Below are positions 4,913 to 27,414 of a DNA stretch of 64,000 nt, one piece after another. The translations under genes and the position numbers were made by a program. The notes under the pieces are model-generated. The model ran no database searches. It saw only the letters and a program-made list of their open reading frames with translations, and had not been told where the DNA came from. Each line of letters opens with the position of its first letter. The first letter of the stretch is position 1. Source of the stretch: a phage; the sequence record PV730299.1, one strand, 5' to 3'.

Positions 4913-5112
4913 TCATGAAACGGTTGTCTAATTATCTGTTGTTCATTGGTCTGGTTATGGCAGCCGTTTCAATGTGTACTGCCCTAGCCTATCATTTCAC
5001 CCCTCTGGACTTAACAACCTCAGAGAAGTTGAACGTGACTGTGATGTACTGTATTGGCGCGGTGATGTCTATCGGCGCTGCTGGTTACAAAATATTCAAG
5101 GAACCAAAATGA
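4909..5112 (+). CDS. small membrane protein
   Basis: Two hydrophobic helices (LLFIGLVMAAVSMC and MYCIGAVMSIGAAGY); ATGA overlaps with neighbours on both sides. Confidence 0.45.
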   Translation: MIMKRLSNYLLFIGLVMAAVSMCTALAYHFTPLDLTTSEKLNVTVMYCIGAVMSIGAAGYKIFKEPK

Positions 5113-5489
5113 AAATTCAAATCCCTCGCGATGCTGTGGCTGTTGCGATCGACTACACCGGAAACGCCAAGCACATTACTGCCGTGCGCCTGATTCCTGA
5201 AAAGAACTGCGTCATCCCTCAGTTCCAACTGAATGCCAATCCGTCGTCCAAAGACTTTGGCAAGTGGTTGCAGGCTGCTCCGTTCCGTACCCAGACGAAC
5301 GCTCAGATGTTCATCTCGAGTAAGACCCACACCGCAGCCCGTCTGTGGTTCGTGACCGCTGACCGTCGCTTTGTCGATATGTGGGAACGTCCGATGGGGT
5401 TCGTGAAGCCGGAAGATATTCAGCTGGCTCCTGAGCCTGAAGCTGTGGCTCCTGAAGAGGAAGCGAAAGATGAAAATCAAGCAGGTTGA
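5109..5489 (+). CDS. hypothetical protein
   Basis: In-frame ATG at 5109 overlapping the upstream stop (ATGA); the track's longer ORF from 4974 would overlap the upstream gene. Confidence 0.5.
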   Translation: MKIQIPRDAVAVAIDYTGNAKHITAVRLIPEKNCVIPQFQLNANPSSKDFGKWLQAAPFRTQTNAQMFISSKTHTAARLWFVTADRRFVDMWERPMGFVKPEDIQLAPEPEAVAPEEEAKDENQAG

Positions 5490-22675: not shown

Positions 22676-22680
22676 CATCG

Positions 22681-22698
22681 GAGGGGTTCGCCCCTCCT
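22681..22698 (+). other. GC-rich stem-loop after the topoisomerase gene, no U-tract
   Basis: GGAGGGG / CCCCTCC perfect 7-bp stem, loop TTCG; immediately precedes the RBS of the next gene. Confidence 0.3.
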
Positions 22699-22716
22699 CA
22701 CCTGGAGGGTTGCGCT

Positions 22717-23004
22717 ATGTTCTATCTCCGTTCTGCAGCACCTGTGGTATTCATCATTATCCTATTTGATTTCCTGGTTCCTCGCTTTATCAAAGAGGAG
22801 GTAGCGTTTGGTCTCTATGGTGAGACGGAAGACCCAGAGGTCGATGAATATTACCCAATGTGCGCCCTGAAAGATATCGAGGAAGGGGAAGATGTTTCAA
22901 TGGTCGGCACCATGCGTTCTTTCAACCTGTTCGGGATTGCACTCTTTCCGAAACTAGTTGGTGAACTGCGCCCCTACGTTCCTGAAGCCACTGTAGACGG
23001 TTGA
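22717..23004 (+). CDS. hypothetical membrane protein
   Basis: N-terminal hydrophobic helix AAPVVFIIILFDFLV; GGAGGG 6 nt upstream. Confidence 0.45.
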   Translation: MFYLRSAAPVVFIIILFDFLVPRFIKEEVAFGLYGETEDPEVDEYYPMCALKDIEEGEDVSMVGTMRSFNLFGIALFPKLVGELRPYVPEATVDG

Positions 23005-23039
23005 TCGTAACATAGCTTCTGAGTCCTAAACTTCTGCCT

Positions 23040-23318
23040 ATGGATGATTCCTTGTATTTTCATTGTCCTGGGTGTGGTATACTTCATCTATATCGCATTA
23101 AGGGCGAAGCCCAAGGTCCGATGTGGATGTGGAACAACAATGTTATTGAGCCTACGTTCACACCGAGCCTGCTGGTGAATGCAACCGATCCAGCATTATT
23201 TTGCCATCTGTTCCTGACCGACGGCAAAATACAATTCCTCGGCGACTGTTTCCATGATCTGAAGAACCAGACAGTGGATATGGTCGACATCTCTGAACCT
23301 GAAATTTGGATTGAATAG
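23040..23318 (+). CDS. hypothetical Cys/His-containing protein
   Basis: 92 aa with HCPGCG and CHLF...DCFHD motifs suggestive of metal binding. Confidence 0.45.
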   Translation: MDDSLYFHCPGCGILHLYRIKGEAQGPMWMWNNNVIEPTFTPSLLVNATDPALFCHLFLTDGKIQFLGDCFHDLKNQTVDMVDISEPEIWIE

Positions 23319-23321
23319 ATT

Positions 23322-23732
23322 ATGAAATTACTGGGATATTTTCGTGAACTCCCAACGGGCACTGAAGGCAAGTTGTTCTCACAGGTGAAGGGGGATGACA
23401 TCGGTGATACGATGATTCCATTGTACACTCGTGAACTTCCTGCCGAAGGTGCCTGGGAGCGCCGTGTGGTCGCTGCCGCCAACAAATATGGTGACGTGAT
23501 CGTCGTTGCTGACCGTCACCACAGCCGATTCATGAACAGCCAGCTCAAGATCCTGAAAGAAGCAGGCGTCATTAAATCCATCCATACCCGCGAACAGGGC
23601 TTCATCGACAACCAGGGCAACTTCCTCACTCGTGAAGAGGCGTGCATCGTAGCCCGTGAAGCTGGACAGATTAATCAGGTGCGCCTGAAGACAACCCCTT
23701 TCCGAGAACTCTTTTCCGAAGACCTCTATTGA
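23322..23732 (+). CDS. hypothetical protein
   Basis: 136-aa ORF; stop followed by the hairpin at 23739-23758. Confidence 0.5.
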   Translation: MKLLGYFRELPTGTEGKLFSQVKGDDIGDTMIPLYTRELPAEGAWERRVVAAANKYGDVIVVADRHHSRFMNSQLKILKEAGVIKSIHTREQGFIDNQGNFLTREEACIVAREAGQINQVRLKTTPFRELFSEDLY

Positions 23733-23738
23733 AGAAAA

Positions 23739-23758
23739 AGGCGGTATTATTACCGCCT
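23739..23758. terminator. hairpin with flanking A-run and weak T-run (possible bidirectional terminator)
   Basis: AGGCGGTA / TACCGCCT stem, loop TTAT; A-run upstream on the plus strand gives a T-run in the reverse orientation. Confidence 0.35.
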
Positions 23759-23782
23759 CGACCCCTTGTTTGGTAACATCAA

Positions 23783-24025
23783 ATGAGCCCAGAATTTGAA
23801 AATCTGTTCGAGCGATGCTTCGAACCAGGTTCTGTGTCCGGTTACATGGACCGCCTTTGCACTGCCATTGTAATACGCCTTGCTGCCAAGGGTATCGTTG
23901 TCAACACCATTATCCGCAATGGGAACAACTTTATCATGCAGATGACTGATTATCACCGCCGCACAGGCATCATCCAGGTGTCATGTGTTGACAACAGCAT
24001 TATTGAATGGAGACAGTACGCATGA
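23783..24025 (+). CDS. hypothetical protein
   Basis: 80-aa ORF whose stop overlaps the macrodomain start (ATGA), supporting expression; competes with an antisense ORF that I rejected. Confidence 0.4.
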   Translation: MSPEFENLFERCFEPGSVSGYMDRLCTAIVIRLAAKGIVVNTIIRNGNNFIMQMTDYHRRTGIIQVSCVDNSIIEWRQYA

Positions 24026-24621
24026 CAACCTATGTAATCAATGGCGGCGATTTACTGAAAGCCGCCTGTAGTTTCAATCTGATCGACATCTTTGCCCACG
24101 GTGCCAACTGTTGGTCTACCATGGGCGCGGGCATTGCTCTGCACATCGGTAACAACTTCCCAGCCCTGCGTGAAGTCGATGCGAACGACCCTCGTGGTCC
24201 AGAGCAACGCCTGGGTGGTATGTCCTATGCATTTGACCACAGCAAGGGCGTTTGGGGCGCGAACCTCTACACTCAGTTTTATCCAGGTCCGAACGCTCGA
24301 ATGCCGTCAGTCATCAGTTCTGTTCAGACCCTGTTTGAGCAGGTGCATGAAATTGTGGAAGCAACTAAAGACGAAACTGTCTATGTCGGCCTGCCTGCTG
24401 TCGGCTGTGGCATTGGTGGCCTGAACCTCTACAGTGTAGTGCGCCATATCAATCGAATCTCTGAAAGCGTGTATGAAGAGACCCGCCGTCGTGTCGTCCC
24501 AGTCTTCTATATCAGGGAAGGAGACGGGTTCGATGATGATCTGATGGAACTTTCTCATCTGGACACAGAAAGTATCATGATTGTCGAAGATGAGCAAGAA
24601 ATCATCGACGAGGAGGCGTAA
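24022..24621 (+). CDS. macrodomain-like protein (ADP-ribose binding/hydrolysing fold)
   Basis: AHGANCWSTMGAGIALHI resembles the macrodomain NAAN..L.GGGGV.GAIH block; GLPAVGCGIGGL resembles the second Gly-rich block. GGAG 10 nt before ATG 24022. Confidence 0.55.
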   Translation: MTTYVINGGDLLKAACSFNLIDIFAHGANCWSTMGAGIALHIGNNFPALREVDANDPRGPEQRLGGMSYAFDHSKGVWGANLYTQFYPGPNARMPSVISSVQTLFEQVHEIVEATKDETVYVGLPAVGCGIGGLNLYSVVRHINRISESVYEETRRRVVPVFYIREGDGFDDDLMELSHLDTESIMIVEDEQEIIDEEA

Positions 24622-25617: not shown

Positions 25618-25830
25618 ATGACTACAGAAAGAAGTTACAGAAAGAACTTCAATATCGAAGGGATTGAGTTCTACCACCATTACGCCCAGGACACCCATGG
25701 CACTGTATGCAACACATATATGCTTGACGGTCACCCTGTAAGTTCCGATGAGTTCTATCGTGTTTTGCGCGAGTCTACAGAAGAATCCCTGTCTTACATT
25801 ATCAATGCCAACGGATTGATTAAACCATGA
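25618..25830 (+). CDS. hypothetical protein
   Basis: ATG 25618 downstream of the terminator; the track's longer ORF from 25531 would span the terminator hairpin. Confidence 0.4.
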   Translation: MTTERSYRKNFNIEGIEFYHHYAQDTHGTVCNTYMLDGHPVSSDEFYRVLRESTEESLSYIINANGLIKP

Positions 25831-26516
25831 TCAACGTATCAATAAACGACCGTGATTTCGTTCGCGATGTTATGACAAACAACAAAGACCCTCTTGCGTA
25901 CAACGGGGAGAAGGTTACTCTGTTCTGGTCAGGCGGCGTGGACAGCACGTACATGCTATTCTGGCTGTTGGCTCACGGGTACGAAGTTCACACGATCTAC
26001 TGCGAACTGGAGAACAACTCCTTCAAGGTGAAGCGTGAGAACTGGGCGCGCAAGAAGATCAGGGAGTGGGTGACCACCAATTCACCGAGGTTGAACACTC
26101 ATTGGCATCACAGGGAAACCCCGATCAGCAAAATGAGCATCCAGTCTGGTGGGTTCCGGCCTTGTCTGGCTCAAGCCCCTGTATGGTTAGTGAACACTCA
26201 ATTCGTGGGCGGCCATTTTGATCGAGGACTGCCAAGAACTTATGTGATGGCATACGTCAACGGAGACGACGCTCTCCACTGGATTCCAGCCTTCAACAAG
26301 ATCGTGGAGGGTTATAACATGTTGGCCAAAGACGGACATGAGATCACCGTTCTCTTCCCTCTCGCCAGCATGAAGAAGACATGGTTCTACGAAGCCCTGA
26401 AACCGATCTATGGCCTGATGACCTGGTGTGAATATCCCGTTCTGAAAAAGAACTGTGATTGCCCCGCTTGTGTCCGCCACCGTCATGAACTTTCCGTGTT
26501 TGAGGGGAAACAATGA
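25827..26516 (+). CDS. queC: QueC-like PP-loop ATPase (7-cyano-7-deazaguanine synthase family)
   Basis: PP-loop LFWSGGVDSTYML followed by GYEVH as in QueC; QueC-like PL..K.TW block; C-terminal tetra-Cys cluster TWCEY...CDCPACVRH. Confidence 0.7.
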   Translation: MINVSINDRDFVRDVMTNNKDPLAYNGEKVTLFWSGGVDSTYMLFWLLAHGYEVHTIYCELENNSFKVKRENWARKKIREWVTTNSPRLNTHWHHRETPISKMSIQSGGFRPCLAQAPVWLVNTQFVGGHFDRGLPRTYVMAYVNGDDALHWIPAFNKIVEGYNMLAKDGHEITVLFPLASMKKTWFYEALKPIYGLMTWCEYPVLKKNCDCPACVRHRHELSVFEGKQ

Positions 26517-26854
26517 AACCGTCTGTTGTGGTGAACGACATCACGAGATTGATAAACCTTGTCAAAGATGTGTTTCCACAACAGGTGGATGTCGAGTACG
26601 TGGGGAAGAACGGGAAGTGTTACCAGGTCGCTCTGTTGTTGAAGCACGTGTACCCTCAAGCAGAGATCCATTACAGTCAGATTGAAGGTCATGTGTATAC
26701 TCTGATTGATGGGCATTACTACGACATCGAAGGTATCCACTTCAGTGTCCCACCGGATACGTGTTTGCTCGAACACAACAGAGGCCATAAACCACATCGC
26801 TGGCATAAAGGGTTTGTGAACGTACCGATTTTAGAATGGTTGAGGAGACCATAA
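26513..26854 (+). CDS. hypothetical protein
   Basis: 113-aa ORF coupled on both sides (ATGA, TAATG) between the QueC-like gene and the phosphoesterase gene; His-rich. Confidence 0.5.
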
Positions 26855-27414
26855 TGGCGGGAATTGTGAAGTATCTGGGAGACACCCACCTCGGACACAA
26901 GAAGGTCTTCAAGCCCCGTGGGTTCGATACCCAAGAAGCGCATGATGCTGCAGTTATCGACAGTATCTTTCAGGGGCTGAAGTCCCGAGATGTCCTTGAA
27001 CTGGCTGGGGACATCTGCTTCATCGGGGCTGAGGGGGTCATTCGCCTGATGCGCGAGGGTGCCAAGCGGAATATTGATGAGTTCAAGCGCCGCCCGGTTC
27101 CCGATGACTGGCGACCGAACTTTATCATCAGGGTGGCGCAAGGCAACCATGACAGCTTCAAGATGTTGATGAAGCTGTATCAAGAGGGATGGATTAGCTC
27201 CTTTGGTGCGATGTATGAGCGTGATACTCCGGTTGGTCGTGTGCTGACCACTCACGTTCCTTATCAATTAGACCGCTGGGCGTATAATATCCATGGTCAT
27301 CTTCACAGTGAAATGCGTGAAGAGCGCGAATACCTGAACTGTAGTTGGGAACAATTCAAGCGCCCTGTAACCCTGTCTGAGTTGTTATACACCAATCTGG
27401 GGATTGAAATATGA
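26854..27414 (+). CDS. metallophosphoesterase (calcineurin-like)
   Basis: Motifs GDTHLGH, GDICFIG, GNHDS and IHGHLH in the canonical order for calcineurin-like phosphoesterases. Confidence 0.6.

Follow-up and report, generated by a model that had tools for sequence, protein, structure and literature searches.

The BubE proteins (DUF6527) of bacterial Bub, or '6E', ubiquitination-like operons are serine peptidases that bind zinc and have a Ser-His dyad; they cleave fusions of the ubiquitin-like protein (Ubl) and, in cells, erase Ubl-target (BubA) conjugates (10.1101/2024.11.21.623953). A second described system of relevance is Arn.3 (Y16D) of phage T4, on which the literature search returned one relevant paper; it calls the function unknown and speculates on counter-defence. 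Members of both families lie side by side in a phage DNA of 64,000 nucleotides (sequence record PV730299.1), the whole of which is called the window below. The subject of this analysis is the segment at positions 22,676 to 24,025, where four small open reading frames (ORFs), designated O1 to O4, are located between the genes for a topoisomerase II (topo II) subunit and a macrodomain protein. An earlier note, made from the sequence alone, had described them as an island of orphan ORFs and proposed host-takeover or anti-defence functions. The stretch as a whole is probably best explained as a co-directional accessory-gene cassette that is conserved family-wide in the Ackermannviridae, follows the topo II medium-subunit gene and contains one gene, O2, that is decaying.

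Conservation and coding signal of the cassette

By megablast, the window belongs with the Ag3-like E. coli phages of the Ackermannviridae, among which Escherichia phage A221 is the nearest (98.2%); DNA-level matches to the region occur in 192 phage records. The gene order topo II, O1, O2, O3, O4, Tk.4 macrodomain, DexA is shared with these relatives and can be read from the annotation of Shigella phage Ag3 and of Kuttervirus pertopsoe and 3HA11. The same order was recovered by tblastn in 18 IMG/VR genomes, including those of Taipeivirus-like phages, and the cassette is syntenic across Agtrevirus, Kuttervirus and Taipeivirus-like phages. Its upstream flank is a gp52-like topo II medium subunit and its downstream flank is a Tk.4/DarG-like macrodomain gene followed by DexA, which bears out the neighbours named in the earlier note. 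The four ORFs of 80-136 amino acids (aa) are also present as described, all on the plus strand (Table 1).

The term orphan did not survive comparison. All four ORFs match PHROG families at 1e-32 to 1e-51, O2 and O4 have Pfam matches, and O3 belongs to PF26092. Protein searches in 50,697 phage records, of which 282 carry this type of topo II subunit, found roughly 200-300 phage genomes for each ORF and about 1,500 for the core of O3 (Table 1). None of O1 to O4 matches an NCBIfam model or, at E up to 1, a PADLOC defence model; only the neighbouring Tk.4 matches DarG. The absence of a recognisable core function was confirmed, as none of the four matches a housekeeping function even though the order is syntenic in relatives. 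The block is accessory in character and variable at its edges.

Pairwise dN/dS (Nei-Gojobori), calculated against up to 31 related loci, was 0.12-0.25 for O1, 0.06-0.14 for O3 and 0.08-0.4 for O4, compared with 0.02-0.09 for topo II and 0.02-0.06 for DexA. Because of these low ratios, O1, O3 and O4 are regarded as real protein-coding genes under purifying selection. O2, in contrast, is open only from an internal Met, and the real 5' end of its gene has been destroyed. The variability at the edges takes several forms. O2 is deleted or decayed in several lineages, including one Kuttervirus genome (L017, 3941-3994) where nearly all of it is deleted and the final 18 codons are left, and O4 alleles are mosaic. 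In Dickeya phage RC-2014 (a Limestonevirus record; L003, 4350-4529), O3 is cut to about 54-59 aa and both O4 and Tk.4 are absent, while in phage 4HA11 (L032, 266-552) O1 is split into two short ORFs.

The GC content of the cassette is 0.45-0.52 versus 0.50-0.55 in the flanks. A compositional island, or horizontal transfer, was rejected on this basis since the difference is about 0.03-0.05 at most, and composition lends no support to the island of the earlier description. The region is a conserved block of hypothetical genes that is already present, poorly annotated, in hundreds of Ackermannviridae genomes, and for the window itself this matters little. GenBank labels such as 'anaerobic dehydrogenase' and 'ammonia monooxygenase' are unsupported here and could be replaced by BubE-like (DUF6527) and Arn.3/Y16D-like. 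The one lead worth testing is the stand-alone phage BubE family together with its association with lysis cassettes; the remainder are members of known families.

Probable decay of O2 in the window's clade

O2 of Ag3, Kuttervirus and Limestonevirus is 103-104 aa long and starts 2-3 nucleotides (nt) past the O1 stop codon (TGAccATG). At this ancestral start the window reads TGAtcGTAacaTAG; the ATG is gone and codon 3 is a stop, as read from DNA alignments with Ag3, pertopsoe, RC-2014, 3HA11 and members of the clade. The frame that is open in the window begins at the former Met12 (ATG 23040) of the 103-aa gene, and no Shine-Dalgarno (SD) sequence is found before this ATG. The lesions are shared throughout an alignment of 11 clade members (A221, fGh-Ecl02, ZQ1, RPN242, PC3, LHE287, YX22, AV101, CECAV_050, one IMG/VR genome and the window), all 11 of which have both the start loss (ATG to ATA or GTA) and the change of CAG to TAG. 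Eight of the 11 carry further indels, at no fewer than five different sites: +1 in RPN242 and L005, -1 in ZQ1, -1 in AV101, +2 in CECAV_050, and -1 immediately ahead of the catalytic His in PC3, LHE287, YX22 and CECAV_050. Sequencing error was rejected as the source of the lesions, given that the same two substitutions occur in all clade sequences examined and that the indels lie at different sites. The start loss and indels explain why GenBank annotation at this position in the clade consists of 44-65-aa fragments or nothing; the protein database likewise holds truncated (63-65 aa) and frameshifted O2 products from close relatives.

The substitution pattern of O2 differs from that of its neighbour. 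Between the window and Ag3, non-synonymous and synonymous differences number 17 and 10 in O2 versus 6.5 and 26.5 in O3 (Fisher p = 0.001), and the changes derived in the window lineage of O2 are 8 non-synonymous and 4 synonymous. Since its start is destroyed, its third codon is a stop and further independent frameshifts have arisen in the clade, O2 here is most likely a dying gene or pseudogene relic whose product would be non-functional or barely functional. The metal-binding motifs pointed out earlier (HCPGCG, FCHLF and DCFHD) are indeed present and belong to the zinc-binding BubE family, but they lie in what is most likely a pseudogene.

Several observations weigh against the reading of the stretch as a conserved cassette with a dying O2. 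The O2 frame of the window is open for 92 codons and retains C9, C12, S43, C55, H56, D69, C70 and H72, and dN/dS among closely related intact O2 copies is noisy, with small counts. The role proposed below for the hairpins would follow from conservation alone. Fold searches gave no informative match for O1, O3 or O4, and all three carry no biochemical function assignment. The strongest competing view is that O2 is a working, N-terminally shortened BubE-type peptidase made from ATG 23040 by re-initiation after O1. The open frame keeps every invariant residue, at least one metagenomic homologue (P0105, 93 aa) begins at the equivalent Met, and AF2 models the 92-aa form with confidence (pLDDT 90). 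However, re-initiation would have to bridge 36 nt past the O1 stop with no SD, the excess of derived non-synonymous over synonymous changes (8 versus 4) is against it, and the frameshifts that followed the same start loss in 8 of 11 clade sequences show that selection has been lifted. A working short form is therefore unlikely, and a decaying O2 is preferred.

A separate observation, covering the window and proteins P0108 and P0113, concerns the +1 frame relative to O2, which at 23044-23178 of the window encodes a hydrophobic peptide (MIPCIFIVLGVVYFIYIAL...). In the frameshifted relatives RPN242 and L005 the C-terminal two-thirds of the BubE-like protein ends up joined to this peptide, probably as an accident of decay.

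Layout, hairpins and the remaining genes

Table 1. Features of the O1-O4 region in the window, with the number of phage records matched by each ORF
Feature	Position	Strand	Description	Records matched	Records at >=80% coverage
Hairpin 1	22680-22697	+	GGAGGGG-TTCG-CCCCTCC; 7-bp stem, 5 nt past topo II medium-subunit stop, no U-tract		
O1 Shine-Dalgarno	22704-22709	+	GGAGGG, read from sequence; 6 nt past hairpin 1; O1 ATG at 22717		
O1	22717-23004	+	95 aa; hydrophobic N-terminus, acidic C-terminal part	292	272
Relic of ancestral O2 5' end	23007-23039	+	ATG to GTA (23007-23009); codon 3 CAG to TAG (23013-23015)		
O2	23040-23318	+	92-aa open frame; motifs HCPGCG, FCHLF, DCFHD	303	261
O3	23322-23732	+	136 aa; T4 Arn.3/Y16D family (PF26092)	1,530	317; lower-coverage rest mainly T4-like arn.3 core
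Hairpin 2	23739-23758	+	AGGCGGTA-TTAT-TACCGCCT; between O3 and O4		
O4	23783-24025	+	80 aa; DUF7234	203	203
Tk.4-like macrodomain protein (DarG-like)	24022-24621	+	phrog_335; DarG profiles		

The genes of the cassette are closely packed. The O2 open frame begins 36 nt past the O1 stop and O3 starts 3 nt past the O2 stop; O4 and Tk.4, which are translationally coupled, have an overlapping stop and start (ATGA at 24022), and DexA starts directly after the Tk.4 stop. This packing fits two sub-units, one consisting of O1-O3 and the other of O4 with the Tk.4 and DexA side. The Tk.4 start was placed by homology to Ag3 Tk.4 at ATG 24022, not at the upstream ATG 24007 given in the ORF list. Tk.4 matches the NCBIfam model antitoxin_DarG at 3.4e-8, which is below the cut-off, and PADLOC DarG at 3.6e-7.

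Each of the two sub-units is preceded by a hairpin. Hairpin 1 is the GC-rich structure without a U-tract that had been reported directly ahead of the first ribosome-binding site, and it is present as reported, with no T-run. Its centroid energy is -14.6 kcal/mol, its position is kept in all genera examined (loci L001-L032) and its sequence changes are compensated: Agtrevirus-like phages have a 7-bp or 6-bp GGAGGG(G) stem, Kuttervirus has GGAGGG/CCCTCC with a different loop, and Taipeivirus-like phages have GGGGGC/GCCCCC. Members of the window's own clade also differ by a G and a C lost as a pair, which shortens the stem from 7 to 6 bp. The GAGGG at the SD position of O1 is conserved in relatives as well. 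Hairpin 1 resembles intrinsic (Rho-independent) terminators in that its stem-loop is stable, GC-rich and located immediately past a stop codon. Unlike them, it has no U-tract, and a strong SD follows within 7 nt and then a co-directional gene; no T-run follows it in the window or any relative, and the terminator consensus scan did not call it. Because it is conserved with compensated changes and never has a U-tract, hairpin 1 is, on this comparative evidence, evidently a selected structure and non-canonical as a terminator. Hairpin 2 (-16.4 kcal/mol; z = -3.25 versus shuffles) is terminator-like on the minus strand only. Rather than terminating transcription, the two hairpins may serve in RNA stability or processing and would thereby mark O1-O3 as a translationally coupled sub-unit. 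Consensus scans for promoters and terminators were at chance (9 found versus 8.1 expected and 7 versus 6.7).

O1 matches phrog_2241 at 9e-35 and has no match in Pfam, NCBIfam or PADLOC. Its relatives form about 78 clusters at 50% identity and share the family motif LDxLxPRFITEDVA...TMRSFNLFGxALFP. The hydrophobic N-terminus of O1 is missing from most homologues, which makes its 'membrane protein' label insecure; a holin-like membrane protein was considered for O1 and rejected for the same reason. A few proteins of the family (P0239, P0261 and P0282) have a C-terminal zinc ribbon of the Lar_restr_allev type (best E=2.4e-10), and this may hint that the context of O1 is one of restriction alleviation. 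Linkage of O1 with O2 outside the Ackermannviridae was not found in the loci checked.

O3 matches phrog_839 at 8e-51. All 90 of its 90 homologues, one of them 93% identical, carry a precomputed PF26092 (T4_Y16D) assignment, while O3 itself was unmatched in the local Pfam, in which this model is apparently not included. By tblastn, O3 reaches genes annotated as arn.3 in the T4-like phages RB32 and Bp7. Residues 45-136 of O3 can be aligned with the T4-type protein over its whole length, and the two have in common the motifs RRVVCAAN, GxRHxD, EQGFID..G.FLTREEA and a C-terminal LFSEDLY; neither has an assigned function. The invariant residues over 61 sequences are H66, Q92, G93, F94, R104, L130, S132, E133 and L135. 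O3 differs from T4 Arn.3 in its lineage-specific, Ackermannviridae-specific N-terminal extension (approximately residues 1-45), a three-stranded beta structure of about 45 residues, and in its location after topo II instead of in the arn-motA cluster. The AF2 model of O3 has a pLDDT of 83. Sequence, family-profile and fold searches of solved structures returned nothing resembling O3, and Foldseek against BFVD returned uncharacterised phage proteins and polyvalent-protein domains only. The O3 (Arn.3/Y16D) fold recurs as a domain within uncultured-phage proteins of 767-1,354 aa described as 'large polyvalent proteins' (A0A6J5LG11, A0A6J5LI71 and A0A6J5SNR6). The GenBank names 'C-N hydrolase', 'tRNA processing enzyme' and 'anti-restriction nuclease' in the O3 family are unsupported here, and a literature search for DUF7234, Y16D and PF26092 returned nothing relevant.

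O4 covers the full Pfam model PF23881 (DUF7234; profile positions 1-80 of 80) at 3.6e-40, with 136.4 bits versus a cut-off of 24.4. Of the four ORFs, only O4 is restricted to the Ackermannviridae; its 9 clusters all come from contigs or records that fit this phage family. The window's allele is 86% identical to that of Kuttervirus pertopsoe (dS 0.16; also maane) versus 71% identical to that of Ag3 (dS 2.0), whereas the genes that flank O4 are far closer to Ag3 than to Kuttervirus. Because the allele is nearer Kuttervirus while its flanks are nearer Ag3, the sequences suggest that O4 alleles are mosaic through recombinational exchange between genera.

The proposal that all four ORFs are functional early genes for host takeover or anti-defence, forming an anti-defence island with the macrodomain gene, can be weighed against these results. 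The genes are small, accessory and free of housekeeping matches, and a DarG-like macrodomain gene adjoins them. The O2 family stems from a suspected anti-phage, ubiquitination-like operon (BubE), the T4 homologue of O3 is in the arn (anti-restriction) transcript and is credited by its authors with a speculative counter-defence role, O3-like domains occur in large polyvalent proteins, and some O1 homologues are fused to the Lar-like restriction-alleviation zinc ribbon. The earlier interpretation is supported in part. However, O2 is decayed here and the prophage neighbourhood of its family points to lysis, no PADLOC defence model matches O1-O4, the promoter scans are at chance, a literature search on Ackermannviridae transcriptomics yielded nothing usable on early expression, and there is no compositional island. 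Additionally, nearly every member of the family has O1 and O3, and both are under strong constraint, in which they resemble core accessory genes more than anti-defence genes of fast turnover. An island of four working anti-defence genes is accordingly improbable. The view that these frames are open by chance or belong to a non-coding spacer has next to nothing in its favour beyond their small size and the lack of an NCBIfam match for any of the four, and is refuted for O1, O3 and O4 by dN/dS well below 1 over saturating dS, besides the strong PHROG matches of all four, the Pfam matches of O2 and O4, and start/stop coupling that is conserved across genera.

Some further observations concern the surroundings. 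Ag3 has an additional 149-aa ORF between the genes for the large and medium topo II subunits (L001, 1497-1943). The window is without it at approximately 21338, where the two topo genes overlap directly, and RC-2014 has a different insert there. A few genes downstream of the cassette, the window encodes a 229-aa protein with a PP-loop-like SGGVDS motif (25827-26516) and a Ser/Thr-phosphatase-like gene (26836-27414). Kuttervirus-like copies of the cassette (78% DNA identity; O1 55%) occur in OR844942.1 (Enterococcus phage Efm 3-10) and MN871475.1 (Pseudomonas phage Pa-sanjiao), which are named for unrelated hosts and are likely mislabelled or contaminated entries.

The intact DUF6527 family and known systems

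O2 matches Pfam PF20137 (DUF6527) at E=1.1e-11, with 44.9 bits versus a cut-off of 23.6, over profile positions 2-62 of 63, and the same domain is carried by all but one (P0119) of the 120 listed O2 homologues. Two characterised BubE sequences, taken from the supplement of the BubE study (10.1101/2024.11.21.623953), were aligned with O2 and its homologues. P10, G11, C12, W29, P42, S43 and H56 are invariant in this alignment, and the positions of S43 and H56 of O2 are those of the catalytic pair S92 and H102 in Citrobacter BubE. Over 76 phage-type sequences the invariant residues are C9, P10, G11, C12, N32, S43, C55, H56, G62, D69 and H72. The candidate zinc ligands of the phage type are the invariant C9, C12, C55 and H72 and the nearly invariant C70 and H16, an arrangement unlike the C57/C59/C61/C99 of BubE. 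O2 and its family profile had no significant solved neighbour in searches of PDB chains and in fold searches. Lone genes for BubE-type Ser-His peptidases with the dyad intact are widespread (303 phage records; 253 loci in bacterial genomes). The Ackermannviridae and the other DUF6527-carrying phages searched yielded no Bub-type E1, and no E1, E2 or Ubl genes were seen beside homologues in metagenomic phage contigs and prophages. Judging by these alignments, the intact relatives of O2 would encode a small zinc-stabilised Ser-His (iso)peptidase that acts alone, without E1, E2 and Ubl partners.

The gene neighbourhood of the family was surveyed by scanning bacterial genomes for DUF6527, which gave 253 loci; 80 were kept (L040-L119, with the match near positions 5001-5300 of each). 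The genes immediately upstream of DUF6527 encode peptidoglycan hydrolases in 35 of 64 cases, tightly abutted and drawn from eight Pfam families (Phage_lysozyme, GH19, Muramidase, Amidase_2, Amidase_3, Hydrolase_2, GH108 and Peptidase_M15_3). Downstream genes include Rz (3), DUF2514 (4) and, in at least 18 of 62 cases, i-spanin-like genes with an N-terminal transmembrane (TM) segment and a charged coil. Because these prophage neighbours are endolysin and spanin-like genes, the location of the temperate-phage DUF6527 gene inside a lysis cassette suggests either a lysis-associated (iso)peptidase or a favoured cargo slot.

Two roles may be considered for the intact protein. The first is that of a lysis accessory peptidase released at holin triggering, whose target might be an isopeptide-type envelope bond, for example an outer-membrane-to-peptidoglycan tether or cross-link. 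The abutted hydrolases of eight families, the Rz, DUF2514 and i-spanin-like genes, and the gene of Aeromonas phage ST4, which is four genes downstream of holin and endolysin, all favour this role, as does the chemistry of BubE, which is isopeptide cleavage. However, in the Ackermannviridae and in phage KLER1-1 the DUF6527 gene is among replication or early-type genes, no signal peptide or TM segment was found in the homologues whose sequences were read, and the substrate is purely speculative. Cargo ('moron') genes also commonly occupy the regions adjacent to lysis genes. A lysis role is therefore tentative and rather unlikely.

The second role is that of a counter-defence deconjugase, an orphan copy of the negative regulator BubE that would strip host Bub/Ubl conjugates. 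Homology to BubE with conservation of the Ser-His dyad and the putative zinc knuckle is consistent with this role, as are the absence of E1, E2 and Ubl partners in the phages, the listing of Bub operons in hosts of these phages (E. coli, Salmonella, Klebsiella and Citrobacter), and the nearby DarG-like macrodomain gene. BubE itself removes BubA-target conjugates in cells (10.1101/2024.11.21.623953), and there is precedent for phage orphan antitoxin-like erasers (PMC11825919). Against this role, the identity to characterised BubE is only 23-25%, the phage type has a specific C-terminal motif (D69, C70, H72), the anti-phage role of Bub is unproven, the prophage copies are in lysis cassettes and not in known anti-defence loci, and a phage BubE was not reported in the literature searched. 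The deconjugase role is thus distinctly unlikely as it stands. A broader proposal is possible, though still doubtful: phage-type DUF6527 proteins may constitute an unrecognised class of stand-alone isopeptidases, which in temperate phages would join holin, endolysin and spanin as an integral fourth part of the lysis cassette, placed between endolysin and spanin, and act on a covalent bond of the envelope, or else would serve as a viral 'deubiquitinase' that erases host Bub-type conjugates, with the Ackermannviridae copy relocated and now being lost in the clade that infects E. coli. Either role, if true, would be new biology, namely a phage remover of Ubl conjugates or a new lysis-cassette enzyme.

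The likeness to BubE is considerable in outline. O2 is above the Pfam cut-off, the phage-type protein is a compact domain of beta structure throughout, with a putative zinc knuckle of the CPxC type at its N-terminus, and an invariant Ser in a 'PS' motif and an invariant His beside a Cys are located at the S92/H102 positions. The authors of the BubE study also found no close neighbour among solved structures (10.1101/2024.11.21.623953). The differences are equally specific. At their low identity to BubE, the phage proteins have a CPGC knuckle instead of CPCGC, a Cys directly before the catalytic His instead of three residues before it, and an additional conserved C-terminal motif, FLGDCxHxLKNQTVD, while the long hydrophobic extension is absent. 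The phage genes stand alone and are not in an operon with Ubl, E2 and E1 as in Type I or II Bub; in the window, the neighbours of O2 are O1 and O3, and the gene has lost its start and is decaying.

Other systems provide conceptual parallels for the two roles. The NADAR protein AdfN, which acts against DarTG1 (PMC11825919), is like the proposed deconjugase in being a lone viral copy of an enzyme that reverses a host immune modification. Unlike such erasers, phage DUF6527 is known here from sequence alone, and Bub is not a proven anti-phage system. The deubiquitinases and deISGylases of eukaryotic viruses are a further conceptual analogue of the deconjugase. For the lysis role, the analogue is LysB of mycobacteriophages. 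LysB is unrelated to DUF6527 in fold and chemistry, being an esterase that acts on mycolyl-arabinogalactan, and the likeness is one of gene position only: LysB is a lysis-cassette serine hydrolase, encoded beside the endolysin, that severs the covalent link between the outer membrane and the cell wall.

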